DNA from: Armatimonadota bacterium
Lineage (GTDB): Bacteria > Armatimonadota > Fimbriimonadia > Fimbriimonadales > GBS-DC
Length of the DNA: 64,000 nucleotides
Direction of reading: 5' to 3'
Assembly: GCA_037445735.1 (NCBI GenBank)
Contig: JBBIJY010000009.1
Coordinates: 35,241-99,240, forward strand
How positions within the stretch are numbered: position 1 is the stretch's first letter; each line of letters opens with the position of its first letter. Positions 13,301 through 47,507 of the stretch are shown in pieces. The notes under the pieces were generated by a model, which saw only the letters and a program-made list of their open reading frames with translations, was not told the DNA's origin and did not search any database. Position numbers and translations under genes: made by a program.

Positions 13301-13987
13301 CACTGGTTCCTGATGCTCATAACCGCTCACCATCAGCTGCTGGATGAGCGCGTCAGGGGAAATGAATGGCTGGGGCGTCCCGCCCCGCAATGCCCCCTCA
13401 CCCGTACCCTCTCCCCCGCTGGGGGAGAGGGGTTCAGTTGCTCCCTCTCCCCTCTGGGGAGAGGGCTGGGGTGAGGGGTTTCCTGCAAGCCTGCGCCCCA
13501 CAGCCCCCTCACCCGTACCCTCTCCCCCGCTGGGGGAGAGGGGTTCGGACGCTTCCTCGCCATCCTCAACGGTGGCGAGGGCTAACAGCAATTGTTCAAA
13601 CATCGCGGGGGGCATCGTGCGTTGCAGGGCGGCGGCAAGCGGAGCAATCACGATGACCGATTCGCCCCGATAGAGCGCCCGCAGCGCGCGCACCCGCTCA
13701 TGCAGAACCTCCAGCTCCACTCCCGTCGGCTCCATCACGGGCGTCAACCCTGCTGGCACACGCACCAGCCGCGATTCAGGGACGCCGAGCCGCAGCAGGA
13801 TCGCCAGCCACTGCTCGGCGCGCTCCAGCGAAGGGGTCAGAATCAGCGCAGGGGCTTGCTGGTCAGCCATCAGCGCTGCTGTCAGCACAGGCGCCGACTC
13901 CGAACACACCTCGCGCCACACCAGCGGACGTCCCCCATCCCAGTCAGGCAATCCACCCCGCAACGCCTGTAGCCAGACGGGCAACAT
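10319..13987 (-). CDS. mfd: Transcription-repair coupling factor Mfd
   Basis: [44 protein letters not shown]-terminus. Confidence 0.97.
12508..12542. repeat. Family B palindrome in-frame within mfd
   Basis: TGGACTGCGGAAGC-agg-GCTTCCGCACTCCA; encodes [12 protein letters not shown]. Confidence 0.75.
13392..13550. repeat. Family A REP cluster in-frame within mfd
   Basis: Three hairpin units; encodes [14 protein letters not shown]...[13 protein letters not shown]...[14 protein letters not shown]. Confidence 0.9.
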
Positions 13988-14169
13988 GCAACTTTAGAGT
14001 GTACCTCAGAAACTGTCCAGTAGTTCGCCCACCGAGCGAGGCGACGGGATTTTCAAACACCCTCGCCTCCCGGTGAGCAGGAGAGCGATTGTTCAACTGA
14101 CCTTTCAGTCGATTCCGGGCAGGAGAAGAGAGCGGAGGAGCGAATCATGAGCGACGGAGGTGAGCAACG

Positions 14170-14574
14170 ATGGGATTTCCATACAAGGACACGGAGCAGG
14201 CGAAGGCGTTCGTGCTGGGATTCATTGAGCGACTGCGCGAGGTGGATGTGATCCGGGAGGGCTGGCAAAAGCTCGATATGCTGATCGCGATTCACATCCG
14301 CCAGCCCGATATCGACTTCTGGATCGACACGCGCGGGGGCAAGCTCGAACTCTGCACCGAAAAGCCTGAAGGCGAAGAGGAAGCCGCGTTGACCCTGACC
14401 GCCGACCTGTTCCACAAACTCTACACGGGTCAGGAGAACGCGATGATGGCGTTCACACAGCGCAAGATTCAGCCCAGAGGGCGCGTGAGCGGCATCATGC
14501 AGCTGACCAGCACCATGCCGCAGGCGGTGGCGGTCTATCGGGAGTACCTCAAGGAGCGCGGGCTGGAACCCTAA
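14170..14574 (+). CDS. SCP2 sterol/lipid-binding domain protein
   Basis: LTLTADLFHKLYTGQENAMMAFTQRKIQPRG pattern; GGAGG SD. Confidence 0.7.
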   Translation: MGFPYKDTEQAKAFVLGFIERLREVDVIREGWQKLDMLIAIHIRQPDIDFWIDTRGGKLELCTEKPEGEEEAALTLTADLFHKLYTGQENAMMAFTQRKIQPRGRVSGIMQLTSTMPQAVAVYREYLKERGLEP

Positions 14575-14581
14575 AAAAAGA

Positions 14582-14658
14582 TGGTAGCCCCAGGGGGATT
14601 CGAACCCCCGTCCTCCTGGCTGAGAACCAGGCGTCCTAGACCGCTAGACCATGGGGCC
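14582..14658 (-). tRNA. tRNA-Glu (CTC)
   Basis: Cloverleaf with CCTGG-TTCTCAG-CCAGG anticodon arm, GTTCGAATC T-loop, encoded CCA. Confidence 0.95.
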
Positions 14659-14710
14659 ACCCGCCGTTCTGCATGATACCCACTTGATGACGGGAAAGTC
14701 AAGAGGAGAG

Positions 14711-14842
14711 GATGCCCCTCACCCGTACCCTCGCCCCCGCTGGGGGAGAGAGAGAGTTATTAGCCCCTCTCCCCCGCCTGCGGGGGAGAGGGTATGGGTG
14801 AGGGGGCTTCACACAGACGGATATGATGCCAGCGATTTTTCG
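14711..14842. repeat. Family A REP pair with tail; partial copy of the element at 27731-27900
   Basis: Shares the GGCTTCACACAG..GATATGATG..GCGA.TTTTCG tail with 27855-27891. Confidence 0.8.
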
Positions 14843-14980
14843 GATGGAGCGGAGCCATTGCAAAAAGATGGGTGTTCCACACTCACGCGCTTAAAGGCTC
14901 CTCCGGCAAGCACCGGGCGCAGGTAAAGGGTACCGCGCCCCACCGCTACCCCGTAAAAATACGGGTTTTTTGTGTTTCCC

Positions 14981-15010
14981 TTGACAGAACCGCGCATGTT
15001 GGGCTATAAT
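14981..15010 (+). promoter_or_regulatory. Consensus sigma70 promoter
   Basis: TTGACA-18 nt-TATAAT. Confidence 0.8.
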
Positions 15011-15150
15011 AGCGGTACAGGTACGCGCCCTGTTCTGATTCGGGCGGCTCCGAGGCACTGATTACATCCTAGCTCCAGACAAAATCCTTCAGCCCGAAGC
15101 CGAGAGAAGGGTGTCGTCCTGAAAAAAACCATCGAAAGGAGGTGTTTGTT

Positions 15151-15891: not shown

Positions 15892-15912
15892 CAGCCTGCC
15901 TTCGGTCCGACT

Positions 15913-15949
15913 CATCCCACCCCCTCTGCATGAGGGGGTGGGATGTTTT
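15913..15949 (+). terminator. Rho-independent terminator
   Basis: CATCCCACCCCCTC...GAGGGGGTGGGATG followed by TTTT, between convergent genes. Confidence 0.7.
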
Positions 15950-20251: not shown

Positions 20252-23200
20252 ATGAACAACCATATGATTCACCCGCTGCCTGGCAGCTGGGGAGCGAAGT
20301 TGCTTCTGGCAAGCTGTGTGTTCGTGATGCTGGCGAACGCTGCCCCAGAGGGAACCTGCTCTTCTAATGCTTGCGTGTTGCCTGCGACCATGCAGGCGCT
20401 GGAGCAGCAGATGCGTGAGGCGTATCAGGCGCGCAAAAGCTGCAAACCCGAACCCCCGATCGAAGTTCGGCTCGAACTGGCACAGTCGCCTGTGCGGAGT
20501 CAGCCCGTGCAGGTGGTCTTCTCCGTGTTGCCGTTTGAGTTCCTGCACAACGCCGAGATCAGCTGGGATGTATCGGAGGGCATCAGCGTGCTGAGCCGCC
20601 CCCAGCCCCTTCAGAACCTGCAGATCGACACCAAGGGCGTGTCCCAGTATCGGCTAACGGTGCAGTTCAACCGTGCGGGCAAGTACGAGATTGCGGCATC
20701 GGTGGTGGAGCGTGGCAACGGCTTCACGATGGGTCGGCGCGTGCATCTCTATTTCGATGTGCGTCCCGACGGCACGATTGAGGTGAGCCGATTGCCCTTC
20801 TGGGAGCCGCTTAAGGAGCCGCCCGCAGCGCAGGAGGTTCCTCCATCCGAACGGATTACGCCGCCTGCCCCCGATTCGCTGGCGCATCTGGGCATCCCAC
20901 CTGCCCCCCAATCCGAACCCGTGAACGACGACGAGACCGTTTCGCCTCAGGGTCCCACGGGCACCGCGCGCGTGCGCGGCTACTTCTACTATCGCCACCG
21001 CGATGGAACCCTGCATGGCGCGTACGGCGCCCTCGTGCAAATCTGGGACGACGACAGCTGGTCGGGTGATGACCTGCTGGCGGAAGCCGTCTGCGGGAGC
21101 GACGGCTTCTTTGAAACGCCCGACTTCGACAACGGCAACGATGGCGACCCGTTCGATGACGCCTCACAGGAGCCGTATGTGCGCTGGTACGCCCGCAACG
21201 GGCGCGTGAATGTGGTGCATTACACGGGCGGACATAACTTCCAGGTGAACGGACCCTCAAGCACCGACCTGCCCGATGGCGTGTGGGATATTGGCGGCTG
21301 GTTCATCGATACCGATGGCCCCGGCAACTATCCCGATGATGGCTGGGAAGCCGCCTACGAGATCTGCGACGCGCTCAGTCGCGCCTGGGCAAGCTACTAC
21401 TACGGGCTGGGCTATGACCTCGCGCTCATCAACTGCCGCTGGCAGGAGGGCGGCTCCGATGGCGCCTACTATGAGGGCGGTTCCCAGCGCATCACCCTCC
21501 GCGATGGCGACCAGCAGGACGACTCGGTCATCTTCCACGAATACGGGCACCATGTGATGCAGGTGGTCAAGGGCGGTTTCCCGCCCGGTTCTGGCGGCGC
21601 TCATAGCTGGTTCGGCTGCTACAACGGCGGACTCGCCTGGAGCGAAGGCTGGGCAACCTACTCCGGTCAAAGCTCGCTGGGCGGTACCACCTACTGCGAC
21701 ACACCCGGCGTGGGTGATTCGGCGAACTTCTGCGTGAATGTGGAGACGACCACAGGCAACTGCTTCGACGGCACCGTTGGCACGACAGGTGAAGCCTCCG
21801 TGCTGTCCTCGCTCTGGGATGTGTATGACAATCTGGCGGGCGACCCCCATCCGCGGGACCGCCTCGCGCTGGGACGCAGCGCCATCTGGGACACCTTCGT
21901 CAACGGCGGAACCCTCAACCACATGCTGGACTTTGTCAATGCATGGTTCGCGCGCGGGTACGACTACGACTCCGCCTTTCGCGATATTATGCGCGACCAC
22001 CGAATCCTGGCGGAAATCAGCAACTTCGTGACGGTGGAGATCGACCACACCTATCGGGGTGACCTGGTGGTGGATGTGGGCGTGGGCAATCCCGACGCGC
22101 CGCTTTATTCCAAGCGTATCTGGAACCGCGCAGGCGGCAGTGCGGACAACCTCTACATTCAGGAGAGCGTGGCGGACGCGCCCAGCTTCTACCTGAACAA
22201 CCCCGACGAGAGCGTGGTCTGGTTCTGCAAAGTGTACGATGCTGCGGGCCTGGATCAGGGCACCCTGCGCCGATTCAGCCTGACCACTAACAACACTTAT
22301 GTATCGGGCAATGTGCCCCAACCTGTAACGGACTTCAACGCGACCTATGCCTTCTACCCGACGCGCACCGCACGCCACGCCCTGATTGGGCTGGATCACA
22401 CATACAGGGGCGACCTCGTGGTGACGATAGGGGCTGGCGATCCGAGCAGTCCGCTCTGGAGCCGCGTGGTGGCAAACCGCACGGGCGGCTCGCTGGACAA
22501 CATGTGGTGCCAGGTGGACCTTTCGAGCGCCGCCGCGTTCCTACCCCCTGACCCGCGCACCTGCGACATGCGCGGCTGGTGGGTCAAAGTGGAGGACCGG
22601 GCAGGCGCCGATGAGGGCACGCTGCACACCTTCCTCATCAATAACAACGGCAGTATCACCGACACGAACGATGCGGATCAGCCGATTGTGGACTTCAGCA
22701 CCAGCTACCTGCGTCAGTGGGGCGACAGCGTCTGGACCGCAATTACACCCGTTACGGGCGCTTACGGACAGACCGTGCCGCTGAGCGTGCGTATGAATGC
22801 TGTCAATCTGGTCAGCTGGATCTGCAACCGCGCCATCGCCTTCTCCGTGGCGGGCAACCCTGCGGGCAGCGCGAACACCGATGTCAACGGCTGGGCAAGC
22901 GTCAACTACACCATCCCTGAAAGCCTTGCCGTCAGCACGCATAATGTGACCTTCGCCTTCGCGGGCGACTTCTTCTTCAGCGCGCGTACCGCGACCGTCG
23001 CCGCGCTGACCGTGCAGAAGGCGAACACCAGCCTCAGTGTGGTGAACCGCTCCGGCTTCATCGGGCAGACGATTCAACTGCAGGCGACGCTCCGCCGCAC
23101 CACCGATAACGCGCCGCTGACAGGCAGAAGCGTGCAGTTCCGCATCGATGGCAACCCCGTCGGCAGCGCAAACACCAACGCCTCTGGCATCGCCACGCTC

Positions 23201-23476
23201 AACTACACCATCCCGAATATCGCCTGCGACAACCACACCATTCAGGCGGTCTTTGCGGGCGACAGCTGGTACAACGCCGGCTCAGGCGACGCCACGCTGA
23301 CCGTTCGCCTGCAGGGCGATGTGAACGGCGATCACGTGGTGGATGACGCCGACCTGCTCGCGGTGCTGTTTGCGTTCGGTCAGACAGGGAGCCGCCCCGA
23401 AGATGTGAACAGCGACGGCGTGGTGGATGACGCCGACCTGCTGATTGTGCTGTTCAACTTCGGGCAGAGCTGCTAA
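20252..23476 (+). CDS. Secreted multidomain zinc metalloprotease-like protein (HExxH, two P-domain-like modules, Ig-like repeats, dockerin-like C-terminus)
   Basis: HEYGHH and SEGWA; HTYRGDLVV twice; GSANT..G.A..NYTIP twice; GDVNGD..VDDADLL twice. Confidence 0.8.
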   Translation: MNNHMIHPLPGSWGAKLLLASCVFVMLANAAPEGTCSSNACVLPATMQALEQQMREAYQARKSCKPEPPIEVRLELAQSPVRSQPVQVVFSVLPFEFLHNAEISWDVSEGISVLSRPQPLQNLQIDTKGVSQYRLTVQFNRAGKYEIAASVVERGNGFTMGRRVHLYFDVRPDGTIEVSRLPFWEPLKEPPAAQEVPPSERITPPAPDSLAHLGIPPAPQSEPVNDDETVSPQGPTGTARVRGYFYYRHRDGTLHGAYGALVQIWDDDSWSGDDLLAEAVCGSDGFFETPDFDNGNDGDPFDDASQEPYVRWYARNGRVNVVHYTGGHNFQVNGPSSTDLPDGVWDIGGWFIDTDGPGNYPDDGWEAAYEICDALSRAWASYYYGLGYDLALINCRWQEGGSDGAYYEGGSQRITLRDGDQQDDSVIFHEYGHHVMQVVKGGFPPGSGGAHSWFGCYNGGLAWSEGWATYSGQSSLGGTTYCDTPGVGDSANFCVNVETTTGNCFDGTVGTTGEASVLSSLWDVYDNLAGDPHPRDRLALGRSAIWDTFVNGGTLNHMLDFVNAWFARGYDYDSAFRDIMRDHRILAEISNFVTVEIDHTYRGDLVVDVGVGNPDAPLYSKRIWNRAGGSADNLYIQESVADAPSFYLNNPDESVVWFCKVYDAAGLDQGTLRRFSLTTNNTYVSGNVPQPVTDFNATYAFYPTRTARHALIGLDHTYRGDLVVTIGAGDPSSPLWSRVVANRTGGSLDNMWCQVDLSSAAAFLPPDPRTCDMRGWWVKVEDRAGADEGTLHTFLINNNGSITDTNDADQPIVDFSTSYLRQWGDSVWTAITPVTGAYGQTVPLSVRMNAVNLVSWICNRAIAFSVAGNPAGSANTDVNGWASVNYTIPESLAVSTHNVTFAFAGDFFFSARTATVAALTVQKANTSLSVVNRSGFIGQTIQLQATLRRTTDNAPLTGRSVQFRIDGNPVGSANTNASGIATLNYTIPNIACDNHTIQAVFAGDSWYNAGSGDATLTVRLQGDVNGDHVVDDADLLAVLFAFGQTGSRPEDVNSDGVVDDADLLIVLFNFGQSC

Positions 23477-27730: not shown

Positions 27731-27900
27731 GAGGGTGTTCGAAAAATCCAACCAGCGGCAAGGATGCCCCTCACCCCTACCCCCTCCCCAGAGGGGAGAG
27801 GGAGAAAATAAACCACTCTCCCCCGCAGGCGGGGGAGAGTGTACGGGTGAGGGGGCTTCACACAGGCAGATATGATGTCCGCGAATTTTCGAACACCCTC
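27731..27900. mobile_element. MITE-like element with 15-bp terminal inverted repeats enclosing a family A REP pair
   Basis: GAGGGTGTTCGAAAA ... TTTTCGAACACCCTC perfect TIR. Confidence 0.65.
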
Positions 27901-27987: not shown

Positions 27988-28833
27988 GTGCAATGTCCGA
28001 ACTGTCGGCAGCCGTTGCCAGAGAACGCGCAGTTCTGTCTGCGCTGCGGTCGCCCGCTCACAGCCACGCTGATGAGCAGCCCGCCCGTTAGCTCCAGCAG
28101 TAGTCGCGCGCTCCGGTGGCTCGCGCTCGCGCTGGGAGTGCTGGTGCTGCTGGGGGCTGTCGCCTTCATCGGCATCCACAGCGGACTGCTCACCCGGGCG
28201 CAGGTGAAAAAGCCCGCGGGTCCCAGCGTGCTGGAGGCGGAGGCGCCCAAGCCCCCAGCGCCCAGCGTGCTGCAAGCCGAAGCGCCCAAGCCGTCGGGTC
28301 CCAGCGTGCTGCAAACCGAGACGCCCCAGCCCAAACAGGCGCCCCAGCATGTGATCAACTGGCTCGAACACCTGCGCCGTATCGAAATGAAACGCCGCAC
28401 AATGGAGCGCAACTTCAATCCCGCACTGGAGATGCTTAAAGACGCACTGGCGCTCAAACTGGAACTGGACGAGGAGAAGCAACAGGAAAAAATGCAAAAT
28501 CTGCAGCAGGGCTATCAGCGCTATCAGCAGGATTGGGCAGGGCTGCTGCGCGAATATCGCTCCGTGCCGCCGCCCGCTGAGTGCCGCGTGTTAGCCGACA
28601 CCTACGACGCCGCACTGAGCAGCTATGTTACCTTCATGCTCCAGATCGAAGACGCCATGCAGAAGCAGGACCTCAACCGCCTGATGAATATGCGTGGCAC
28701 GGCTCAATCCGATGTGGATCAGAAGCTCATTAATGCCGATGTGGAGCTGATGAAGGTGTGTGAGAGCTACGGCGTGCGCAAATATTTTGACATTCGCCCG
28801 TCGGGCGCCGTCGAAACACTGTTCGGGTTTTAG
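27988..28833 (+). CDS. Zinc-ribbon membrane protein
   Basis: CPNC...FCLRCG, one TM, helical C-terminal domain. Confidence 0.8.
   Translation: MQCPNCRQPLPENAQFCLRCGRPLTATLMSSPPVSSSSSRALRWLALALGVLVLLGAVAFIGIHSGLLTRAQVKKPAGPSVLEAEAPKPPAPSVLQAEAPKPSGPSVLQTETPQPKQAPQHVINWLEHLRRIEMKRRTMERNFNPALEMLKDALALKLELDEEKQQEKMQNLQQGYQRYQQDWAGLLREYRSVPPPAECRVLADTYDAALSSYVTFMLQIEDAMQKQDLNRLMNMRGTAQSDVDQKLINADVELMKVCESYGVRKYFDIRPSGAVETLFGF
28213..28332 (+). repeat. Three 39-bp in-frame tandem repeats (PxxPSVLxxExPx linker)
   Basis: CCCAGCGTGCTG recurs every 39 bp. Confidence 0.7.
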
Positions 28834-32794: not shown

Positions 32795-32941
32795 CCCTCT
32801 CCCCCGCAAGCGGGGGAGAGGGTACGGGTGAGGGGGCTTTTTATCCTGCCAGGCTGAGAAAACCCCCACCCCGACCCTCTCCTTAGCAGGGAGAAACTAA
32901 GCCCCTCTCCCCCAAAGGGGGAGAGGGTACGGGTGAGGGGC
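32795..32941. repeat. Family A REP cluster
   Basis: Three CCCTCTCC...GGGAGA hairpin units. Confidence 0.88.
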
Positions 32942-33045
32942 TTAAAAACCCCTCGCGGACACCACAAACCCCTTCTGTCAACCCCAACATATCGGAAATT
33001 CGGGGTGATTTCGCCCAAATCTGGGGGTTTGTGGGGCTTAACCCC

Positions 33046-35012: not shown

Positions 35013-36817
35013 AACAGCGGGGCACAGCGGTCGTGTATACAGCGGGCGAGGCGCGCCAGCGTCAGCAGGAGTCGCAGCGCCTCGCGGTCGCGGGCGGGCT
35101 GATGGCGCTGGGCGGCGTGCTGATTGTCGGGCGGCTCTTCACCCTGCAGGTGCTGCAGGCGCAGGAGATGCGTGAGGCAGCCCGCATCCGTCGTGAGCGC
35201 ACGCGCCCACTGCTCGCCCGACGCGGCGCGATCCTTGACCGCTATGGACGATCCCTCGCCCGCACCACTTTCCATTATCACCTGGCGATCGACCCGCGGA
35301 GCGTGCGCGATCCTGCCGCGACCGCTCGCTGGCTTGCGCACGGGCTGCAACTCGACGCGAACCGCCTGCAGGCTGCCATCGAAGGGGCACAGGCGAGCAA
35401 TGCCCGCTACCTGCGCATCGCCACCTTCGTGCCGCAGGCGCGTGCCGAACCGCTCCTGCAAGCCTATCGGCGCACACCCACCCGCGAGCGGCTCGCCATT
35501 CTCACGAGAGAGGTTGTGCCCTCGCGTGAGCTGCCCGAAGGGCGGCTCGCTGCGCAGGTCGTGGGGCTGACCACCCTCGAAGAGAACCGTGAACAGGGCA
35601 ATATGCTCAAGCCCCTTTGTGGGCTGGAGCTTTCGATGGACGCGCGACTGAACGGCAAAAACGGTCAGGAAGAGGGTGAGGTCGCGCCGAACGGCGCCAT
35701 CATTCCCGAAACTCTGCGCCGGCGGGTGCCGCCCGTCGATGGCGAACCCGTGCGACTCACGCTCGATATCGAAATTCAACAGGCTGTGGAGGATGCGCTG
35801 GACGACCTGATGCGCCGACATCAGCCTGCAGGCGCGCTGGCGATGGTGCTGAATGTGCGCACGGGCGAACTCCTCGCGCTCGCCAACCGCCCCACCTTTG
35901 ACCCCATCACGCGCAAAGGGCTGGAGCGTAGCGCCGAACCGCTGCGCAACCGCGCCATCACCTTCCTGTACGAGCCTGGCTCCACGCTCAAGCCAGTCGT
36001 GCTGGCTGCCGCGCTCGACGCGGGCATCGTGCGCCCAACAGACCGATTCTACTGCCGCAACCGTTTTGTGGTCAGTGGCAAACGCATCAATTGCGTGGTG
36101 CATGGGCGCTCGCACGGCTTGCAAACCGTTGAGGCGGTGCTGAAGAACTCCTGCAATGTTGCCTGTGCGCAGATTGGCTTGCGAATGGGGCTGGAGCGGT
36201 TGTACAGGGGGCTACAGCGGTTCCACCTGCTGGAGCCGACGGGCATCGAGCTGCCTTCGGAGTGGACGGGCTGGACGGAGCCACCCCAGCGCGTGCGATA
36301 TGGGCGTACCCTGCGCGAGGCGAACCTCGCCTTCGGGCAGGGCGTGTTCGTGACGCCCCTCGCGCTTGCCGCCGCCTACGCCGCGCTCGCCAACGACGGA
36401 CGCTGGATCCAGCCACACCTGCTCTACGGACGCACCGACCTGAAAACCACACAGGTGGTTCAGCCCGCAATCGCGCGGCTCATCCTGCACGCGCTGGTGC
36501 AGGCAGTGGAGGAGGGCACGGGCAGGCAGGCACAGATACCCGGCTACTGGATCGCGGGCAAAACGGGCACAGCGCAGAAAGCTATCCCCGAACGCGGCTA
36601 TGTGCGCGGCAAATATATCGCCTCCTTTATCGGCATCGTGCCCGCCGATGAGCCGCGCGCCGTCATCATGGTGCTTGCAGATGAACCGCGCAACGGCTAC
36701 TACGGTGGCGAGGTCGCAGCGCCCACCTTCCGCCGAATCGCCCAGTTCCTGCTCTGGTACTGGAAAATCCCGCCCAGCAGAGAACTTAAAAGCAGAGCGA
36801 GGTCTAACCGGGTATGA
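35009..36817 (+). CDS. ftsI: Class B penicillin-binding protein (FtsI)
   Basis: RGAILDR, EPGSTLK, SCN, KTGTAQ. Confidence 0.9.
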   Translation: MKQRGTAVVYTAGEARQRQQESQRLAVAGGLMALGGVLIVGRLFTLQVLQAQEMREAARIRRERTRPLLARRGAILDRYGRSLARTTFHYHLAIDPRSVRDPAATARWLAHGLQLDANRLQAAIEGAQASNARYLRIATFVPQARAEPLLQAYRRTPTRERLAILTREVVPSRELPEGRLAAQVVGLTTLEENREQGNMLKPLCGLELSMDARLNGKNGQEEGEVAPNGAIIPETLRRRVPPVDGEPVRLTLDIEIQQAVEDALDDLMRRHQPAGALAMVLNVRTGELLALANRPTFDPITRKGLERSAEPLRNRAITFLYEPGSTLKPVVLAAALDAGIVRPTDRFYCRNRFVVSGKRINCVVHGRSHGLQTVEAVLKNSCNVACAQIGLRMGLERLYRGLQRFHLLEPTGIELPSEWTGWTEPPQRVRYGRTLREANLAFGQGVFVTPLALAAAYAALANDGRWIQPHLLYGRTDLKTTQVVQPAIARLILHALVQAVEEGTGRQAQIPGYWIAGKTGTAQKAIPERGYVRGKYIASFIGIVPADEPRAVIMVLADEPRNGYYGGEVAAPTFRRIAQFLLWYWKIPPSRELKSRARSNRV

Positions 36818-38397
36818 GACGCTTGAGCGAACTGTTGCAGGAGGCTGGCGTGGCGCATCGGCTGTATGGCGACAGCTGGATTCGCGCCATCCAGGTCGAT
36901 TCGCGTCAGGTGCAGGCGGGCGATCTGTTCGTTGCGCTCAAAGGCACGCGCCATGACGGGCATCAGTTCCTGCAACAGGCGATTGAGCGGGGCGCCGCCG
37001 CGCTGCTGGTGAGCAACGCGAGCGCCATCCCGCCCAACGCACCCGCATGGGCACAGGTGGACGACACACGCGACGCACTGTGGCGGATTGCCCGGCAATT
37101 TTACGGGGACGCGAGCCGCCAGCTGAGGGTGGTGGGCGTCACGGGCACCAACGGCAAGACCACCACCACGCACCTGATGCGCGCGATTTTCGAGGCGGCA
37201 GGTCTGCCCTGTGCGCTGATTGGCACGCTGGGCGCCGCGCTACCCCACCTACTGGAAGATGCCCCCTCACCCGTACCCTCTCCCCAAAAGGGGAAGAGGG
37301 GTATAGAGAATCCCCTCTCCCACGCTGTGGGGGAGGGGGCAGGGGGCGAGGGACCTGCCCTGACCACGCCGGAGCCGTTTGTGCTGCAGGCGCTGTTGTG
37401 CCGTGCGCTGGAGCGGGGCGCCCGCGCCGTCGCGATGGAGGTCTCCTCGCACGCGCTCGACCAGCGCCGCGCCGATGGCATCCGCTTCGACGCAGGCATC
37501 TTCACCAACCTCACGCCTGAACATCTGGACTATCACCCCACGATGGAGGCTTACGCCGCCGCCAAACTGCGTCTGTTCACCGAGCTGGCACGCCAGTCGG
37601 GCAAGCCGTTCCGCGCCGTTATCAATCTCGATGCGGAATGGGGCGGGTGGTTCGCCGAGCGTGCCGAAGGCGAGCTGTGGACTTACGGCACACAGCCGAA
37701 CGCGCGCGTGCGAGCCACCGAGGTGCAGATTCACACCGATGGCATCCAGTTCATCGTGCAGGCGGATGCCGGCAAGCCGTTGCGCTTCCCTGCCCGCATT
37801 CGGCTCAGTGCACCGTACAACCTGCAGAATGCGCTGGGCGCGATTGCCGCCGCGCTCAGCCTCGAACTGCCGATTGAAGCCATTCAGGTGGGTCTGCTGC
37901 GTGTGGAGCGGGTGCCCGGGCGCTTCGAGCGCGTGCCCATCGATGCCCCCTTCACCGTGATTGTGGACTACGCGCACACGCCCGACGCCCTCCGACGCCT
38001 GCTGGAGGCGGCGCGGGCGCTGGAACCCACACGCCTCACCATCCTGTTCGGCTGCGGGGGCGACCGCGACCCGACCAAACGCCCCGTGATGGGCGCCATC
38101 GCCACTGAACTCGCTGACCGCGTGATCCTGACCTCCGATAACCCGCGCACCGAACCACCCGAACGCATCCTTGAGCAAATAGTGGCAGGCATCCCGCCCG
38201 AACGACGCGAGAAAGTGGTGGCGATTGAACCCGATCGGCGCACCGCAATCGCGATTGCTCTGGAGCAGGCGATCGCGGGCGAGCTGATCCTGCTAACAGG
38301 CAAGGGACACGAGAACTATCAGATTATCGGCACGACAAAGTTTCCGTTCAGCGATCGTGAGACCGTGCTGGAGTTGATGGGAGCGAAGCGAGCATGA
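36814..38397 (+). CDS. murE: UDP-MurNAc-tripeptide synthetase MurE
   Basis: GTNGKTTT, MEVSSH, DYAHTPD, DNPR. Confidence 0.96.
   Translation: MRRLSELLQEAGVAHRLYGDSWIRAIQVDSRQVQAGDLFVALKGTRHDGHQFLQQAIERGAAALLVSNASAIPPNAPAWAQVDDTRDALWRIARQFYGDASRQLRVVGVTGTNGKTTTTHLMRAIFEAAGLPCALIGTLGAALPHLLEDAPSPVPSPQKGKRGIENPLSHAVGEGAGGEGPALTTPEPFVLQALLCRALERGARAVAMEVSSHALDQRRADGIRFDAGIFTNLTPEHLDYHPTMEAYAAAKLRLFTELARQSGKPFRAVINLDAEWGGWFAERAEGELWTYGTQPNARVRATEVQIHTDGIQFIVQADAGKPLRFPARIRLSAPYNLQNALGAIAAALSLELPIEAIQVGLLRVERVPGRFERVPIDAPFTVIVDYAHTPDALRRLLEAARALEPTRLTILFGCGGDRDPTKRPVMGAIATELADRVILTSDNPRTEPPERILEQIVAGIPPERREKVVAIEPDRRTAIAIALEQAIAGELILLTGKGHENYQIIGTTKFPFSDRETVLELMGAKRA
37261..37351. repeat. Family A REP pair in-frame within murE
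   Basis: Encodes [31 protein letters not shown]. Confidence 0.85.
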
Positions 38398-39794
38398 GAG
38401 CGATGACCTTACGCGAGGTTGCGCAGGCGTTGCATGCGAGCCTGCCTGTGCTGCTGACGGGCGAGGAGCGCGTGCAGGGCGTCACGACCGACAGTCGCAC
38501 GGTGCAGGCGGGCGACCTGTTCTTTGCGCTGCGGGGCGAACGCACCGATGGACACATGTACCTGCAGGAGGTGTTCGCGAAGGGCGCGGTCGCTGCGGTG
38601 GTGGAGTATATCCCGATTGGCGCGGAAGGGCTGCCCCTGCTGCGCGTGCCCTCCACCCTGCAGGCGCTGGGCACGCTGGCGCACCACTACCGCATGCAGA
38701 TGCCCGATCTGGTGGTGATCGGCATCACAGGCAGCACGGGCAAGACCACCACGCGCGCGATGACCGCCGCCGCGCTTGAAGCGGGCTATCCTGGCGCCAT
38801 CCAGAGCAGCCCGGGCAACTTCAACACCGAGATTGGCGTGCCGCTCACCATCTTCGGGCTGGAGGCGCACCATCGGCTGCTGGTGCAGGAGATGGCGATG
38901 CGCGGGCGCGGGCAAATCGCCTACCTTGCCGGGATCGCCCGCCCGCAAATCGGCGTCATCACTCAAATCGGCTGGTCACACATCGAGCTGCTGGGCAGCC
39001 GTCAGGCGATTGCGGAGGCGAAGGGCGAGCTGCTGCTGGCATTGCCACCCGACGGGTGGGCAATCCTGCCCCGCGACGACAGGTTCTATGAGTTCCTGCG
39101 TTCGCTGGCGCCCTGCCCCGTGCTGACCTTCGGACGCCATCCCGAATCGGACGCCTGCCTGCTCGAAACGCGCCTTGCGCCCGACAGCACCACAGGCGTC
39201 ATCCAGATTCGGATACCCGCCACCGGCGAGCGAGCGATTGTCGAACTCACCCTGCCCTATCTGGGCGAGCATCTGCTGATGAACGCGACGGTCGCCCTGC
39301 TGGTCGCTGCCGTGCTGGGTGTCGATCTGGAGCGGGCTGCCCGCGCGCTGGCGCAGGTGCAACTGCCCGAGATGCGCATGAACATTCAGCCCCAGCCCGG
39401 CGGCTGGACGCTCATCAACGACGCCTACAACGCGAACCCCGATTCGATGCGCGCGGCGCTGCAGGTGCTGCTCTATCAGGCGCCTGCTAAACGCCGGATC
39501 GCCATTCTGGGCGATATGAAGGAGCTGGGCGCCTACAGTATGCGCCTGCACTGGCAACTGGGGCGCTGGCTTGCCACTCAGCCGCTCGATTACCTGATTC
39601 TGGTCGGCTACGATGTGCTATGGACGGCGGCTGCCGCCAGGGAGGGCGGGTTCCCCCCTCAGCGCGTGCTGCACTTCGAGAACCCGCTGAGCGCAGGGGA
39701 GTGGCTCTGGCGCAATGTGCAAAAGGGCGACTGGGTACTGCTCAAAGGCTCCCGCGCCATCGGACTGGAACGCATCATGGGCGTGAAGGCGTAA
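38394..39794 (+). CDS. murF: UDP-MurNAc-pentapeptide ligase MurF
   Basis: GSTGKTTT, NTEIGVP, NDAYNANPDSM, KGSR. Confidence 0.96.
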   Translation: MRAMTLREVAQALHASLPVLLTGEERVQGVTTDSRTVQAGDLFFALRGERTDGHMYLQEVFAKGAVAAVVEYIPIGAEGLPLLRVPSTLQALGTLAHHYRMQMPDLVVIGITGSTGKTTTRAMTAAALEAGYPGAIQSSPGNFNTEIGVPLTIFGLEAHHRLLVQEMAMRGRGQIAYLAGIARPQIGVITQIGWSHIELLGSRQAIAEAKGELLLALPPDGWAILPRDDRFYEFLRSLAPCPVLTFGRHPESDACLLETRLAPDSTTGVIQIRIPATGERAIVELTLPYLGEHLLMNATVALLVAAVLGVDLERAARALAQVQLPEMRMNIQPQPGGWTLINDAYNANPDSMRAALQVLLYQAPAKRRIAILGDMKELGAYSMRLHWQLGRWLATQPLDYLILVGYDVLWTAAAAREGGFPPQRVLHFENPLSAGEWLWRNVQKGDWVLLKGSRAIGLERIMGVKA

Positions 39795-39880
39795 TCAGCC
39801 TCCCTCTCCCCCTTTGGGGGAGAGGGTACGCAATCAGCCTCCCTCTCCCCCAGAGGGGGAGAGGGTACGGGTGAGGGGGC
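39794..39880. repeat. Tandemly duplicated family A REP units between murF and mraY
   Basis: AATCAGCCTCCCTCTCCCCC....GGGGGAGAGGGTACG occurs twice. Confidence 0.85.
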
Positions 39881-39893
39881 AACATTAAGCAAG

Positions 39894-40955
39894 ATGATGA
39901 TAGAGATGGTGATCGCGGCACTAACGGCGCTGGTAATGGGCAGGCCGATAATCGGTGCGCTGGCGCGACTGAACATTCGCCAGAGCATCTATTCCTACGC
40001 GCCTGAAAGCCATCGGGTGAAGGAAGGCACGCCCACGATGGGCGGGTTCATTATTCTGCTCGGCGTGGCGGTCGGGCTGCTCGCGTTCGCCTTTCTGCCC
40101 CATCCTGCACAACCAGTAGCTGGGGCATCCATGCCCCAGTCTATCCCCAGAGGTAGCCTGTACCTTGTGCCGTTGCTCACCTTCTTCGCCGCGGCGGGGC
40201 TGTTCGCCCTGCTGGGCTTCCTCGACGACTATCTGGTGCGCCGCTGGCTGGGGCGGCGCGGGCTGGAATGGAAAACGAAACTGCTGCTGCAGGCACTGAT
40301 GGCGGCGGTCGCACTCTATGCAACAGCGAGCATGCCAGCGCAGTTGCTGAGCGCCCCTCATGCCGATGGAGCAAACGCGCCTGCTCTTCCCTCCCCTGCT
40401 CTGCCCCTCTCCGTCTGGCTGCTGGCGCTGGTGTGGGTGGTCGGCTGGGTGAACGCTTTCAACCTGACAGATGGGCTGGACGGGCTGGCAGCGGGGCTGA
40501 GCGTGATTGCGTTCGGTATACTCGCCGCGCTCTGTCGCGACACGCTGAGCGTCATCACCGCGATGCTCTGGTGCGGCGCCGCGCTCGGCTACCTGTGGTG
40601 GAACCTTCATCCCGCGCATGTGTTCATGGGCGACACCGGCTCGATGGCGCTCGGCGCAACCTTCGCGCTAATCACCTGGCGCGAACTGATGCTCGCTGGG
40701 AGCCTGTCGGGTGAATGGCTCCCGCGCGCCGCGCTGTTCGTGCTGATCGGGCTGATGTTCGCGATCGAAATCATCACCGTGATAATTCAGTTGAGCGCGG
40801 TGAAGGTGCTCAAGCGGCGCATCTTCCGCGCGACGCCCATCCATCACCATTTTGAGCTGATGGGCTGGCAGGAGAGCCTGATTGTGGGTCGGTTCTGGAT
40901 TGCAGGTGCGCTGACGGGACTGATGGCGTACGCGCTTTCGGGAGGGTTGCGATGA
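39894..40955 (+). CDS. mraY: Phospho-MurNAc-pentapeptide transferase
   Basis: GTPTMGG, NLTDGLDGL, FMGDTGS, PIHHHFEL. Confidence 0.96.
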   Translation: MMIEMVIAALTALVMGRPIIGALARLNIRQSIYSYAPESHRVKEGTPTMGGFIILLGVAVGLLAFAFLPHPAQPVAGASMPQSIPRGSLYLVPLLTFFAAAGLFALLGFLDDYLVRRWLGRRGLEWKTKLLLQALMAAVALYATASMPAQLLSAPHADGANAPALPSPALPLSVWLLALVWVVGWVNAFNLTDGLDGLAAGLSVIAFGILAALCRDTLSVITAMLWCGAALGYLWWNLHPAHVFMGDTGSMALGATFALITWRELMLAGSLSGEWLPRAALFVLIGLMFAIEIITVIIQLSAVKVLKRRIFRATPIHHHFELMGWQESLIVGRFWIAGALTGLMAYALSGGLR

Positions 40956-42493
40956 ACTGGAGCGAGATGCGGGTGGCAATCGTTGGCACGGGGCGTAGCG
41001 GCATAGCCGCTGCCGCCGCACTGCTCCAGCGCGGCGCCACCGTCGAACTGTATGACCGCAACATGCAGCTGGATGCACTGGAACAGTTGATGGCGCATCT
41101 GGAAAACGCTCAGCTCGATCCCGATATGGAGATCACTATTGCAGGGTTCCCGCAACAGGATGTGCCTGACTGGGAATCGCCGCCCGATCTGATTATCGTC
41201 AGCCCTGCCCTGCCCCCGTCGCATCCGCTGTTTGAGGGCGCCCGCGCGCACGGCGTCCCCGTCTGGAGCGAGATCGAGCTGGGCTATCGCCTCGCAAAAG
41301 CGCCCATTATTGCCATCACGGGCACAAACGCCAAAACGACGACCGCCGCGCTTGTCCACCACCTGCTGACCCATGCGGGCATCCGGGCGCACCTGTGCGG
41401 CAATATCGCGGGCACCGAAAGCGACCAGACGCTTACCACCGCCGCGCTCAAGGCACAGCCCGACGAGTGGCTTGTGGCGGAGGTCAGCTCGTTCCAGCTG
41501 CAAAACATCCATCAATTTCGCCCGCACATCGCGGTCATCACCAATATCACGCCCGATCATCTGGACTATCATGGCAGTTTTGAGGCGTACGCGCGGGCGA
41601 AGGGGCGATTGCTGGAGAACCTGACGCCCGACGACTGGGCAGTGCTGAACGGCAACGATGCGGGCATCCAGCAGCTTCTAAAATGGCTGCGTGCCGAGAA
41701 CTGCCCCGGATTGCTGAATGTGGAGCGCGCGGGGCATCTGATCCTGAATCCCGCTTCCCTGTGGGGAGATGAAGAACCCAAATCCCTCTCCCCCTCTGGG
41801 GGAGAGGGGGTTGCTGAAGCCCTCTCCCCCGCCTGCGGGGGAGAGGGTACGGGTGAGGGGGCTGTTCCCAGCGGTGAAGAGAGGAACCCCTCACCCCAAC
41901 CCTCTCCCCAGCGGGGAGAGGGGGTTTCTGACGCCCTCTCCCTTTCTGGAGGAGAGGGTATGGGTGAGGGGGCACTTTTAGCAGCAGCTGTCGCACGGAT
42001 AGTGGGCTGTAGCGAGGCACAGATTCAAACAGCACTGACAAGCTTTCGTGGCGTGCCCCACCGCATGGAGTTCGTCGCCGAAATCAAAGGCGTGCGGTTC
42101 ATCAACAACTCGATGTGTACCAACGCCGCCGCGCTGGATTACTCCCTGCGCCTTGCACCCAAGCCCTGCATCGTGATCGCGGGCGGTGTCGATAAGAACG
42201 ATTCAGCGGAGCAGCTCGCCGATGCAATCCGCCGATATTGCCGCGCAGCGATTCTGATCGGTCAGGATGGCGAGCGCATCGGTGCATGCCTGAGCGCGGC
42301 GGGCTACACGAACTGGCGCTATGCAGGCACGCTGGAACGCGCTGTGGAGCAGGCGTTCGCGCTGGCGCAATCGGGCGAAACGGTGATTCTGGCGCCAGGC
42401 TGCGCCAGCTTCGATCAGTTCCGCAACTTTATCGAGCGCGGCGAGCGGTTCCGCGCATGCGTGCGAACACTGAGCGAGAGAGGTCAGGGATGA
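40952..42493 (+). CDS. murD: UDP-MurNAc-L-Ala:D-Glu ligase MurD
   Basis: ITGTNAKTTT, EVSSFQL, DHLDYH, HRME, PGCASFDQF. Confidence 0.93.
   Translation: MNWSEMRVAIVGTGRSGIAAAAALLQRGATVELYDRNMQLDALEQLMAHLENAQLDPDMEITIAGFPQQDVPDWESPPDLIIVSPALPPSHPLFEGARAHGVPVWSEIELGYRLAKAPIIAITGTNAKTTTAALVHHLLTHAGIRAHLCGNIAGTESDQTLTTAALKAQPDEWLVAEVSSFQLQNIHQFRPHIAVITNITPDHLDYHGSFEAYARAKGRLLENLTPDDWAVLNGNDAGIQQLLKWLRAENCPGLLNVERAGHLILNPASLWGDEEPKSLSPSGGEGVAEALSPACGGEGTGEGAVPSGEERNPSPQPSPQRGEGVSDALSLSGGEGMGEGALLAAAVARIVGCSEAQIQTALTSFRGVPHRMEFVAEIKGVRFINNSMCTNAAALDYSLRLAPKPCIVIAGGVDKNDSAEQLADAIRRYCRAAILIGQDGERIGACLSAAGYTNWRYAGTLERAVEQAFALAQSGETVILAPGCASFDQFRNFIERGERFRACVRTLSERGQG
41783..41973. repeat. Family A REP cluster in-frame within murD
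   Basis: Four hairpin units encoding ~63 aa of a G/E/P/S-rich insert. Confidence 0.9.
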
Positions 42494-44882: not shown

Positions 44883-44894
44883 GGAGGAGCCACC

Positions 44895-47507
44895 ATGCAG
44901 TCCCCGACGGGCATCCCGCTGACGACCGACCGCGAACCCAGCCTCCAGACGCGATTCCATTTTGTGGGCATCGGGGGCGCGAGCATGTCCGCGCTGGCAC
45001 GCTGGCTCGCCGAAAAGGGCGCAACGGTCAGCGGCTCCGACCTTGCCGACTCACCTGCGCTGGAATCGCTGCGCACGCGCGGTATCCATGCCTACGCGCC
45101 TCACGACCCCGCACGGATGGGTGAACCCGACTGGCTGATTGTGTCCGACGCCATCCATCCTGATAACCCCGAAGTGATGGAAGCACAGCGTCGCCACCTG
45201 CCCATCTGGCGACGCTCGCAGCTGATGGGCTGGCTGCTGAAGCCCTATCGCGTGATTGCCATCAGCGGCACGCACGGCAAAAGCACCACCACCGCGCTTG
45301 TTGCTGCCATTCTGGAAGCGGCTGGCTACGACCCGCTCGTGCTGCTGGGCGCCGACACGCCGCTCACCACGCCCCCATGGGCGGGCAATATCCGACTGGG
45401 CAGCGGCGAATGGGCAGTCGTCGAAGCCTGCGAAGCCTACGAGTCGTTTCTGGACTTCCAGCCCGACATCGCGCTCATCACCAGCATCGAACCTGACCAC
45501 CTCGATTATCATGGCACTTTTGAGAATCTGCTAACGAGTTTTGCCCGCTTCCTGCACCAGCTGAAACCCGAAGGGTGCTGGATTGGCTGTGGGGATCATC
45601 CGGGGGTACAGCGGCTCTGCGAGCGTGGCGATGTGCCGCGCCCGCGCCTGCTGTACGGCTTCACTGTGGACTGCGGAAGCCCCGCTTCCGCAGTCCAAAC
45701 TGCTGAAATCATCGAGCGAACGCCCTCCATCACCCGCTTCCGCGTGAAGAATGAGCCCCTCTCCCCCACAGGGGCGGAGGGCGAATCCAGACCCCTCTCC
45801 CCCAGTGGGGGAGAGGGTACGGGTGAGGGGGTTTTTTATCCTGCATCTGCGATCAACCCCTCACCCCAACCCTCTCCCCAGAGGGGAGAGGGGGTTTCTG
45901 AAGCCCTCTCCCCCTTTGGGGGCGAGGGTACGGGTGAAGGAGTGCCATCTCCAGCCGATTGGGACTTCGCCCTGCCGCTTGTGGGCGATCACAATGTGCT
46001 GAACGCGCTGGGCGCGATTGGCATCGCCCAGCTGCTGAACATCCCGATGGAGGTGGCACAGCGTGCACTAACAGGGTTTCAGGGCGTTCGGCGGCGGCAG
46101 GAGCTGATTGGCGAGGCGATGGGTATCACGCTCGTAGACGACTACGCGCACCACCCGACGGAGATCGACGCCACGCTCGCCGCGTTGCGCCAGCGGTTCC
46201 CCAACCGCCGCCTGATCGTGCTTTTCCAGCCGCATCTGTACAGTCGCACGCGCGACCTGCTGGGAGGGCTGATCCAGAGCCTGCGCGGCGCCGACATGGT
46301 GGTCATCACCGATATTTATCCCGCTCGCGAGAAGCCAATACCAGGCGTGAGCGCGTCGCTGATTGCCGATGGCTTGCTGGAGGGCGATCAGCCACCCACG
46401 CTCTATGTGCCCATCAAAGAGCAGATCCCTGCGCGTCTCCTGCCCCATCTGATGCCGGGCGATGTGGTGGTCACGATGGGCGCAGGTGATATCGATAAGG
46501 TGGCGCCCGCCCTGCTACGCATGCTGGAGGCGCGGGGTCAGGTGCGGCGACTGCGCATCGCTGTGCTGATGGGCGGCGACTCGCCCGAACGCGATGTGTC
46601 GCTGCTCTCTGGCTCGCGTGTGCTGCAGGCGCTCGACCCCGACCGCTACATCGGCATCCCGGTGGACCCTGCCCTGATGCGCGGCCGGGAGGGCGTCTGG
46701 GGACTGCTCGATTTATTGCAAAGCGAACGCCCCGATCTCGCTTTCATCGCTTTGCACGGTCGGCACGGCGAGGACGGCGCGATTCAGGGTCTGCTGGAGA
46801 TGCTCGGCATCCCCTACACGGGTTCGGGTATCCTGCCCAGCGCACTCGCCATGAACAAATACGCTGCCAAAATCGTGTTGCAATCGGCGGGCATCATCAC
46901 GCCGCGCGGCGTGCTGGTGTCGCGTGCGGAACTGAACGAACTGCTAACGCCTGCTGCCAGCCCGAAGCTTGCCGGGCTGAAACCACCGCTGATTGTGAAG
47001 CCCAACGAGGGCGGCTCCACGCTGGGCACAACGCGCGTGTGGGAGTGGGAGCAGTTGCCCCGTGCCCTGCGGAAGGCGTTCGCCTACGACGAGCGCGCCT
47101 TGATCGAGGAGCTGATTGAGGGTGTGGAGGTCTCCGTGCCCGTGATTGGCACGCGCCATCCGCGCGCGCTGCCCCCTGTGGAGATTGTGCCCCGCGGCGG
47201 CTTCTACGGCTTTCAGGCAAAATACACCCCCGGCTGGACAGAGGAGATTGTGCCCGCTCGCCTGCCCGATGAACTGCTGGATGTGCTGATGGCGACCGCC
47301 CTGCAGGCGCACCTCGCGCTCGGCTGCCGCAGCATGAGCCGTGTGGATATAATCCTGCGCGAGCGCGTGCCCTTCGTGCTGGAGGTGAACACGATTCCGG
47401 GCTTGACCCCCACCTCGCTTCTGCCGCGCAGCGCGGAGGCGGCGGGCATCCCCTTCCAGCAACTGATCACTTTGCTGATAGAGGACGCGCTGGAGGGTTC
47501 CTCATGA
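44895..47507 (+). CDS. murC-ddl: Bifunctional MurC / D-Ala-D-Ala ligase fusion
   Basis: N-terminal GIGGASMS, GTHGKSTTT, DDYAHHPTE; C-terminal GGDSPERDVSL, LHGRHGEDG, EVNTIPG. Confidence 0.93.
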   Translation: MQSPTGIPLTTDREPSLQTRFHFVGIGGASMSALARWLAEKGATVSGSDLADSPALESLRTRGIHAYAPHDPARMGEPDWLIVSDAIHPDNPEVMEAQRRHLPIWRRSQLMGWLLKPYRVIAISGTHGKSTTTALVAAILEAAGYDPLVLLGADTPLTTPPWAGNIRLGSGEWAVVEACEAYESFLDFQPDIALITSIEPDHLDYHGTFENLLTSFARFLHQLKPEGCWIGCGDHPGVQRLCERGDVPRPRLLYGFTVDCGSPASAVQTAEIIERTPSITRFRVKNEPLSPTGAEGESRPLSPSGGEGTGEGVFYPASAINPSPQPSPQRGEGVSEALSPFGGEGTGEGVPSPADWDFALPLVGDHNVLNALGAIGIAQLLNIPMEVAQRALTGFQGVRRRQELIGEAMGITLVDDYAHHPTEIDATLAALRQRFPNRRLIVLFQPHLYSRTRDLLGGLIQSLRGADMVVITDIYPAREKPIPGVSASLIADGLLEGDQPPTLYVPIKEQIPARLLPHLMPGDVVVTMGAGDIDKVAPALLRMLEARGQVRRLRIAVLMGGDSPERDVSLLSGSRVLQALDPDRYIGIPVDPALMRGREGVWGLLDLLQSERPDLAFIALHGRHGEDGAIQGLLEMLGIPYTGSGILPSALAMNKYAAKIVLQSAGIITPRGVLVSRAELNELLTPAASPKLAGLKPPLIVKPNEGGSTLGTTRVWEWEQLPRALRKAFAYDERALIEELIEGVEVSVPVIGTRHPRALPPVEIVPRGGFYGFQAKYTPGWTEEIVPARLPDELLDVLMATALQAHLALGCRSMSRVDIILRERVPFVLEVNTIPGLTPTSLLPRSAEAAGIPFQQLITLLIEDALEGSS
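45666..45700. repeat. Family B palindrome in-frame within murC
   Basis: TGGACTGCGGAAGC-ccc-GCTTCCGCAGTCCA; encodes [12 protein letters not shown]. Confidence 0.75.
45755..45940. repeat. Family A REP cluster in-frame within murC
   Basis: Encodes [46 protein letters not shown]. Confidence 0.9.

Follow-up and report, generated by a model that had tools for sequence, protein, structure and literature searches.

How do conserved bacterial genes come to carry stacked copies of a G/C-rich palindromic repeat within their coding sequences, and what brought the repeats there? The question is raised by 64,000 nucleotides of an Armatimonadota bacterium of the Fimbriimonadales (GenBank assembly GCA_037445735.1, contig JBBIJY010000009.1, positions 35,241 to 99,240 of the forward strand), here called the window, in which such a repeat lies between genes and also, in frame, within mfd, murE, murD and a murC-ddl fusion. 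[quoted passage not shown] The window copies are probably gene-less derivatives of a selfish element that is associated with the DUF559 nuclease and whose mobility we infer. A broader proposal, held with somewhat more doubt than belief, is that DUF559 would be the mobilising or homing enzyme of BoxC/TMECO and that the two make up a pan-bacterial selfish class, comparable to RAYT with REPINs, whose gene-less and nuclease-carrying forms may both sit in frame in essential genes, as the whole DUF559 does in MurD, and be translated as disordered linkers about an inserted domain.

The repeat unit is ~40 nt long. In orientation B a C-rich arm leads through a short loop into a G-rich arm, and after 3 nt comes another G-rich block (the "third strand"); orientation A is the reverse complement of B. 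The hairpin CCCTCTCCC-N2-9-GGGAGAGGG has 12 exact copies in the window against 0.00 expected from 100 shuffles, and GGGNGAGGG-NNN-GGGNGAGGG, i.e. the G-arm, N3 and the second G-arm with at most one mismatch, is found at 21 sites against 0.01 expected, with the C-arm hairpin present at these full-motif sites. A fuzzy hairpin census of the window gave 30 matches, 27 of them judged true family members. Variable-gap and third-strand patterns were used in place of a search pattern with a fixed 4-nt loop, which gave zero matches because loop length varies; with arms set at 9 nt some hairpin loops come out at 7-8 nt, though the stems run further. The repeats form nine clusters across 36 kb, in both orientations, and amount to 21 full motifs per 64 kb of DNA that is ~63% G+C over most of its length. 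The coordinates that the initial annotation of the window had given for four inserts within genes (13392-13550, 37261-37351, 41783-41973 and 45755-45940) are confirmed by the repeat search and census, as is the presence of five intergenic clusters, and its picture of a selfish-looking, multi-copy, palindromic repeat stands. Units are further joined into composites: an 86-nt A-spacer-B composite, 90% identical between its murD and murC copies, has mutually reverse complementary ends, i.e. terminal inverted repeats, and itself lacks coding capacity, and a 91-nt B-spacer-A composite occurs in four copies with 69-79% identity to the reference copy.

What the repeats are not is a new REP family, as had been thought; they match instead the published TMECO pattern CCCTCNCCC N3-6 GGGNGAGGG N3 GGGNGAGGG (PMC4666352), with 21 third-strand matches plus C-arms in the window. 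TMECO had been described as the BoxC repeat in the 1990s and as the "PIT" element in 2000 (Holder 2015, PMC4666352), and the same source counts 3610 copies in 262 proteobacterial genomes, at most 143 in a genome and 23 in E. coli MG1655, where they are "always located intergenically". In the available text of that paper TMECO is described as folding into an intrastrand triplex in vitro, not detectably in vivo, as having no promoter or terminator activity, and as marking local sequence instability or raised variability, with deletions and mutated copies. The G-arm and third strand together contain four G-tracts, which brings a G-quadruplex to mind; the structure described by the published biophysics is the triplex (PMC4666352). 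The window repeats share with TMECO the pattern of arm, loop, N3 and second G-arm, the multi-copy state, the occurrence singly or in inverted pairs and the local variability. They differ from the intergenic copies of E. coli in that 10 of the 21 lie in frame inside genes, although intergenic placement is a property reported for one species and no part of the motif definition; they differ from TMECO as published (PMC4666352, as far as its available text goes) also in the Armatimonadota host, a far higher density, a spread over many non-proteobacterial phyla and the flanking by DUF559. An Rfam scan of the window found no family covering the repeats.

Within the four open reading frames (ORFs) lie 14 of the 27 hairpins and 10 of the 21 full motifs, stacked into arrays of 90-190 nt:

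10319..13987, minus strand: mfd (transcription-repair coupling factor), a 1222-aa ORF with Pfam domains TRCF, DEAD, UvrB_inter, CarD_TRCF_RID and Helicase_C
13392..13550, minus strand: mfd repeat array, in gene-strand order B, A, B, at residues ~146-205 (hairpins at 13407, 13443 and 13518; full motifs at 13395, 13457 and 13506)
36814..38397, plus strand: murE, a 527-aa ORF with Pfam domains Mur_ligase, Mur_ligase_M and Mur_ligase_C
37261..37351, plus strand: murE repeat pair, an A unit and a degenerate hairpin (hairpins at 37276 and 37313)
40952..42493, plus strand: murD, a 513-aa ORF with Pfam Mur-ligase domains
41750..41973, plus strand: murD array of degenerate hairpin, hairpin, B, A, B, at residues ~267-341 (hairpins at 41750, 41784, 41820, 41900 and 41934)
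44895..47507, plus strand: murC-ddl fusion, an 870-aa ORF with Pfam Mur-ligase domains, Dala_Dala_lig_N and Dala_Dala_lig_C
45755..45940, plus strand: murC array of hairpin, B, A, B (hairpins at 45757, 45793, 45870 and 45904)

The view that conserved genes keep reading through the repeats and gain peptide loops by doing so is upheld, the ORFs for Mfd, MurE, MurD and MurC-Ddl being uninterrupted and their expected Pfam domains complete. Nor are the genes obvious inactive duplicates: their domains are intact and the division and cell wall (dcw) cluster is canonical, in the order mraZ, rsmH, a gene for an ftsI-like penicillin-binding protein, murE, murF, mraY, murD, ftsW, murG and murC-ddl, with ftsA further on. 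The peptides quoted for the inserts are as the initial annotation had them, except that the G-arm of the first murE hairpin reads KGKRG and not GEG. The murC-ddl fusion itself is also seen, at ~800 aa, in most Fimbriimonadales homologues among the matches listed.

When MurD, MurC and MurE are aligned with solved sequences, the inserts stand in place of short variable loops. In MurE ~35 aa take the place of a ~5-aa loop, residues 152-158 of 8f5d_A; in MurD the insert is flanked by the counterparts of residues 242 and 271 of 3lk7 and adds ~47 aa relative to the closest relative among the matches listed; and MurC is longer by 55 aa than its closest relative among these matches and by ~70 aa than solved MurC, at residues 253-282 of 6cau. 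The MurC and MurD arrays occupy homologous positions, just ahead of the conserved helix that comes after the middle domain. The mfd array is directly N-terminal to UvrB_inter (residues 209-289), and the alignment of this protein to solved Mfd begins at residue ~209, with an extra length of ~60 aa. An AlphaFold2 model of MurD (62-row alignment) has a mean predicted local distance difference test score (pLDDT) of 86.4, with values below 50 only at residues 276-335, and the best Foldseek matches of the model are solved MurD structures (TM-score up to 0.79 by target length); the loop is accordingly predicted to be disordered in a MurD fold that is otherwise confident, which agrees with the disordered product previously suggested for the inserts. 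As RNA, the murC array (45750-45945) has a computed fold of -128.2 kcal/mol (z = -6.9).

The ten full genic motifs of the window are read uniformly, all six coding-strand B copies as GEGxGEG and all four A copies as PSPxPSP. Each insert has two open sense frames; the third is closed, with 1-5 stops per insert, because of a TGA in the third strand. The unused open sense frame would give a peptide containing Arg, Val, Trp and Phe, e.g. TPHPNPLPSGERGF, while LPRWGRG, which had been put forward as an open but unused frame, belongs to the frame that is closed on the sense strand in every insert and is open only antisense. Since there are two open sense frames per insert, the use of one frame in four of four window genes has a chance probability of ~0.06, and its constancy is as a sign of non-chance use suggestive only. 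Beyond the window other frames are in use. In related Fimbriimonadales MurD proteins, among the 120 homologues listed, the hairpin is read SPSPTSWERGQGGEG (PSP…ER) in 13 and SPLPRSGRGAGGEG (PLP…GRG) in 2, these variants having a longer spacer between arm and third strand, as judged from the peptides, that places the TGA in a different frame; and the linker of a proteobacterial LpdA reads PLTPALSP. Of the claim that the inserts are always read in the same frame the part on the four window genes therefore stands and its extension to related proteins does not, and the conclusion drawn from it, that selection tolerates only the Gly/Glu/Pro/Ser frame, was too strong, given the probability of ~0.06 and the other frames in real proteins. 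A milder bias toward GEGxGEG on the coding strand is supported: canonical coding-strand copies read GEGxGEG in the four window genes and in four verified cases from other phyla, and ERxxVRG in none or one, that case being unverified. What holds throughout is that the stop is avoided and that the apparent product is rich in Gly, Pro and Ser and often charged. A search with the MurD-insert peptide (E <= 0.001) returned three proteins, including P0125 (a BirA-like ligase) and P0126 (782 aa), which have the same peptides; both are left out of the frame statistics because the query biased the search to this frame.

The arrays differ in size from those of a close relative. The closest relative among the matches listed is represented by a MurD (P0005, 96% identical to window MurD over aligned columns) and a MurC (P0277), both from one 218,956-nt contig. 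At the MurD site five units in the window are matched by a single unit, ALSPACGGEGMGMGEGA, in P0005, and at the MurC site four units by one degenerate unit, PLSSSRSEGTGEGV, in P0277. Alignment with orthologues, which had been proposed as a check, therefore does reveal a difference in unit number from the nearest relative in both proteins, and array size has changed since the two lineages split; their common ancestor probably had one unit per site. The more distant Fimbriimonadales homologues listed are mostly without such a unit at the two sites. In many Fimbriimonadales MurD proteins (~490-530 aa; e.g. P0022 and P0078) this variable region holds low-complexity inserts of a different kind, as in P0078, where HPPTPSPKALGEGEG is present four times. 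On these sequences the variable loop of MurD looks like a recurrent landing site.

A nuclease of DUF559 type flanked by the repeats, of the kind envisaged in the initial annotation, is found outside the window, at replicon loci and in relatives of MurD. DUF559 is a Vsr-like PD-(D/E)XK nuclease (PMC1189080). Nine of the 120 MurD homologues listed, proteins of 700-829 aa, contain DUF559 (PF04480) in frame and flanked by repeat-coded peptides. In one of them, P0035, the domain order is Mur_ligase_M (113-228), DUF559 (335-442), Mur_ligase_C (573-685), and DUF559 has repeat-coded peptides on both sides. Pfam finds in P0035 and P0082 the Mur-ligase domains, PF04480, PF18741 and PF10881 together with weak N-terminal matches of Rossmann-type NAD(P)/FAD-binding families, and no intein (Hint) domain. 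The MurD parts of an AlphaFold2 model of P0035 (50 MurD rows) are confident; the insert, residues 237-504 including DUF559, is of low confidence because the alignment is shallow there. An alignment of the MurD::DUF559 proteins with free DUF559 proteins was dropped, all 28 DUF559 rows being misplaced. At two loci the motif directly adjoins a DUF559 ORF: at L063 3 nt separate the end of the third strand from the DUF559 start codon, and at L124 a motif read PSPQPSP precedes the DUF559 domain by ~20 aa. A strict motif-coded heptapeptide is found at the N- or C-terminal end of 18 of 150 DUF559 representatives (the best 150 of 19,518 cluster representatives at E <= 0.001), against 1 of 120 MurD controls.

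The same association is seen on plasmids and chromids. A tblastn search with the L063 protein against plasmid and chromid records matched 36 records, and 14 selected loci were fetched with 5 kb on each side. At 12 of the 14 the DUF559 match has a CCCTCNCCC-loop-GGGNGAGGG hairpin no more than 250 bp away, upstream at 11, downstream at 9 and on both sides at 8. Hairpin density is 2.4/kb near DUF559 (28 in 11.6 kb) against 0.11/kb elsewhere (15 in 133 kb), and 13 of the 15 hairpins counted as elsewhere belong to one array, at L137, that continues from the DUF559 gene. This array, on a plasmid of Photobacterium sp. GJ3 (5397-6970), has 15 hairpins of two alternating types and starts ~35 nt downstream of the DUF559 match. 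In Deinococcus the gene forms part of a symmetrical module, a C-rich third strand and hairpin, DUF559, then a hairpin and G-rich third strand, in which the inverted repeats extend ~15 nt further outward; to judge by its sequence it is the window's A-spacer-B composite in which a gene has taken the place of the spacer. The module stands at different hpa operon junctions in different species (L131, L133, L135 and L138, Deinococcus plasmids, at about position 5000 of each locus), and junctions that hold it in one species are tight or overlapping in others, a pattern that reads as insertion polymorphism. In Sinorhizobium meliloti the DUF559 gene is placed between A-spacer-B composites whose spacers are mutually reverse complementary. 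In E. coli K-12 (L126, NC_000913.3, locus 5040-5840) the 3' end of ycjD, the DUF559 gene, lies within a C-arm; a duplicate of part of this 3' end comes next, and a full motif follows ~170 bp downstream.

Nor is the motif confined to Proteobacteria. A scan of contigs with it gave at least 144 sites in at least 125 loci, the source genome not among them, and one architecture is common to all sites listed. Their sources are Proteobacteria, Verrucomicrobiota, Planctomycetota, Chloroflexota, Acidobacteriota, Nitrospirota, Cyanobacteria, Deinococcus, Omnitrophota, Elusimicrobiota and others, a range of phyla that on these matches is far wider than the available text of PMC4666352 reports. A Pfam scan covered the ORFs that stay open over 60 aa or more to both sides of a site (50 aa or more at 45 short loci; 31 + 23 ORFs), and at 6 of the 144 sites, among the matches listed, the motif is in frame and is flanked or surrounded by Pfam domains; these six and four less clear cases are:

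L003, from a Burkholderiales metagenome-assembled genome (MAG): Mfd, read PSPQPSP
L006: linker of an ABC transporter, read GEGRGEG
L020: class-I tRNA synthetase, read GEGQGEG
L058: LigA (NAD-dependent DNA ligase), in the adenylation domain, read GEGRGEG
L110: IspG, read GEGGGEG
L091: LpdA, in the linker between the lipoyl and FAD domains, read PLTPALSP
L009, less clear: tail of FadB, read PHPGPLP
L069, less clear: GlnE, with the motif beyond the last domain match
L081, less clear: read GERARVRG, 12 aa ahead of an ABC ATPase domain
L056, less clear: AcrB-family gene in a MAG (971-4856), two overlapping ORFs in different frames, split exactly at the motif

The split of the AcrB gene at L056 may be either a real disruption or an assembly error in a G-run.

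How such repeats could spread may be pictured as follows. DUF559 would nick or cut at or near the motif, and the break would be repaired from another copy, so that new copies land at or beside existing ones and arrays grow and shrink; repair of breaks at existing motifs is thus proposed as the reason why the repeats cluster. [quoted passage not shown] Like MITEs they are small, have terminal inverted repeats and lack coding capacity, and the DUF559 modules may be their longer relatives, in which like ends enclose a gene; unlike the case of MITEs (PMC10969869, in its available text), that gene is not a recognised transposase. Copies that survive in essential genes would be those that add a multiple of three nucleotides, avoid the TGA of the third strand and fall into permissive surface loops, and the surviving inserts would be translated as disordered loops rich in Gly, Glu, Pro and Ser. 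A precedent for the selfish spread of such a nuclease into conserved genes is given by the EDxHD homing endonucleases, e.g. I-Bth0305I, which have a Vsr-like fold (PMC3239194, in the part available); these enzymes sit in introns or inteins and have NUMOD DNA-binding repeats, whereas the MurD::DUF559 proteins are without an intein domain in Pfam. The Rickettsia palindromic elements (RPEs) offer a parallel for the gene-less state: they are described, in the accessible part of PMC10969869, as palindromes inserted without loss of frame into numerous unrelated conserved genes, where the peptide they add is taken to suit the protein fold, and for which no mobiliser is known. The window repeats likewise lie in frame in unrelated conserved genes and are compatible with the fold. 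They are set apart by description, being shorter, G/C-rich units of ~40 nt stacked in arrays and spread over many phyla rather than one genus, and on grounds of host and base composition membership of the RPE family is unlikely.

Several points weigh against a DUF559-associated selfish element as the source of the window repeats. DUF559 is, to our knowledge, not a known transposase, and the 64-kb window contains no DUF559 gene. Among the matches listed, phmmer finds DUF559 at 2 of the 125 motif loci, which leaves most copies solitary. The 14 replicon loci on which the hairpin counts rest were hand-picked, one per species or replicon type, and are a non-random set, and two of them, both cyanobacterial, have no hairpin near DUF559. 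Translation of the inserts is something that is deduced from the reading frames, and the frame bias, which may reflect selection on the peptide, comes from few independent events. Finally, Holder et al. report no link of TMECO to mobile elements and no stable triplex in vivo (PMC4666352, in the text available).

In the main rival there is no dedicated enzyme: the motifs would be hot spots of non-B DNA that stall replication, slippage, break repair and gene conversion would copy, expand and delete them, and DUF559 would merely accumulate there or use the motif as a regulatory or ribosome-binding signal. This is rather unlikely but deserves to be taken seriously. The motif is tied to instability, deletions and mutated copies by Holder et al. 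(PMC4666352, as far as available), the window differs from the closest relative as if units had been gained or lost between direct repeats of the arm that codes for GGEG, and the third strand that ends just before the DUF559 start codon at L063 could be a ribosome-binding site. Slippage fits the size of the arrays; it does not fit the first arrival of near-identical sequence at unrelated genes and in unrelated phyla, and the symmetric bracketing of DUF559, the extended terminal repeats and the different operon junctions are left unexplained by it. An adaptive origin, in which loops of Gly, Glu, Pro and Ser have been recruited as functional flexible or regulatory segments of the Mur ligases and Mfd and the constant frame is the mark of selection for the peptide, is improbable. 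The shared frame of the four window genes, to which P0125 and P0126 may be added, and the homologous positions of the MurC and MurD arrays speak in its favor; on the other side, the search that yielded P0125 and P0126 was biased to this frame, relatives use other frames, at either site the closest relative makes do with one degenerate unit and most homologues have none, the MurD loop is predicted to be unstructured, and the murD and murC copies are 90% identical as DNA over 86 nt, as befits recent repeat copies rather than old protein segments.

Two further explanations fare worse. REP, BIME and REPIN sequences are short palindromes found in inverted pairs or clusters, and the single-copy RAYT gene is bracketed by the repeats. 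An ordinary REP/BIME family, moved by a RAYT (an IS200/IS605-type tyrosine transposase) encoded elsewhere in the genome, would account for the clustering of short palindromes whose orientation alternates as it does in BIMEs, and the window repeats do resemble a REPIN/RAYT system in outline, having palindromes in inverted pairs and clusters and an enzyme gene bracketed by them. This origin is nevertheless very improbable: a Pfam scan of the 55 window ORFs found no RAYT or Y1 transposase domain, the bracketed gene is the PD-(D/E)XK nuclease DUF559 and not RAYT, the third strand of the triplex motif is lacking in REPs, and the window copies are not extragenic as REPs are but lie in part inside genes. 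Least probable, to the point of being hardly credible, is that the interrupted genes are inactive or artefacts of assembly, with inserts that are never made into protein. G-runs are indeed error-prone in long-read MAGs and the AcrB gene at L056 changes frame at the element; against this the four window ORFs are intact, with complete domain sets and in canonical dcw order, the orthologues of the relative hold shorter in-frame versions at the same sites, and the MurD model is confident outside the loop.

The DUF559-associated element, if correctly identified, bears on a question that the available text of PMC4666352 does not explain, namely the origin and spread of BoxC/PIT/TMECO. No earlier account of the repeat in frame in essential genes, or of its association with DUF559, appears to exist in the literature available: a search of it, without the supplements of PMC4666352, found no paper on in-frame copies or on a link between DUF559 and the repeats. 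The bracketing of DUF559 bears both on the movement of the repeats and on the role of a very large uncharacterised nuclease family (19,518 representatives). Essential enzymes have loops that absorb selfish DNA, and the repeats are therefore a source of disordered segments in bacterial proteins. For annotation it follows that genes of this kind should not be called pseudogenes and that their low-complexity segments should not be trusted as conserved sequence.

The remaining copies of the repeat in the window lie between genes:

10043..10320, no strand assigned: intergenic cluster of five hairpins that adjoins the mfd stop codon, between a tyrosine recombinase gene (8949-9923) and mfd
14699..14817, no strand assigned: intergenic pair A+B, 41 nt from a tRNA gene (14585-14658, minus strand)
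27751..27866, no strand assigned: intergenic pair A+B, found by hairpin census and full-motif matches
32795..32942, no strand assigned: intergenic cluster upstream of mraZ, its neighbours being an AhpC/TSA gene and mraZ
39781..39890, no strand assigned: intergenic pair between murF and mraY, found by hairpin census and full-motif matches

A second and unrelated palindrome, perfect over 29 nt with 13-nt arms and a 3-nt loop, is present in the window in two copies that encode the same peptide:

12511..12539, no strand assigned: copy in frame in mfd
45668..45696, no strand assigned: copy in frame in murC, absent from 15 of 15 aligned MurC relatives

The stretch at 832-7472 is of lower G+C (49-56%) and has three large minus-strand ORFs (959, 537 and 699 aa) without a Pfam or PADLOC match; PADLOC gave nothing for five large window ORFs that lack a Pfam match. 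The tyrosine recombinase gene at 8949-9923 is near this stretch, with the large intergenic repeat cluster beyond it, and the lower-G+C stretch may be an acquired island. A lone Rfam match to CRISPR-DR2 (62843-62872, 43.3 bits), with no tandem array around it, is probably stray. Repetition of other kinds is seen in two further coding regions, a zinc-ribbon protein with three tandem 39-nt coding repeats (28210-28332) and a 1074-aa Ig-domain protein with ~65-nt internal repeats (22853-23468), the last two copies of which encode a segment of the type GDVNxDxVVDDADLL.

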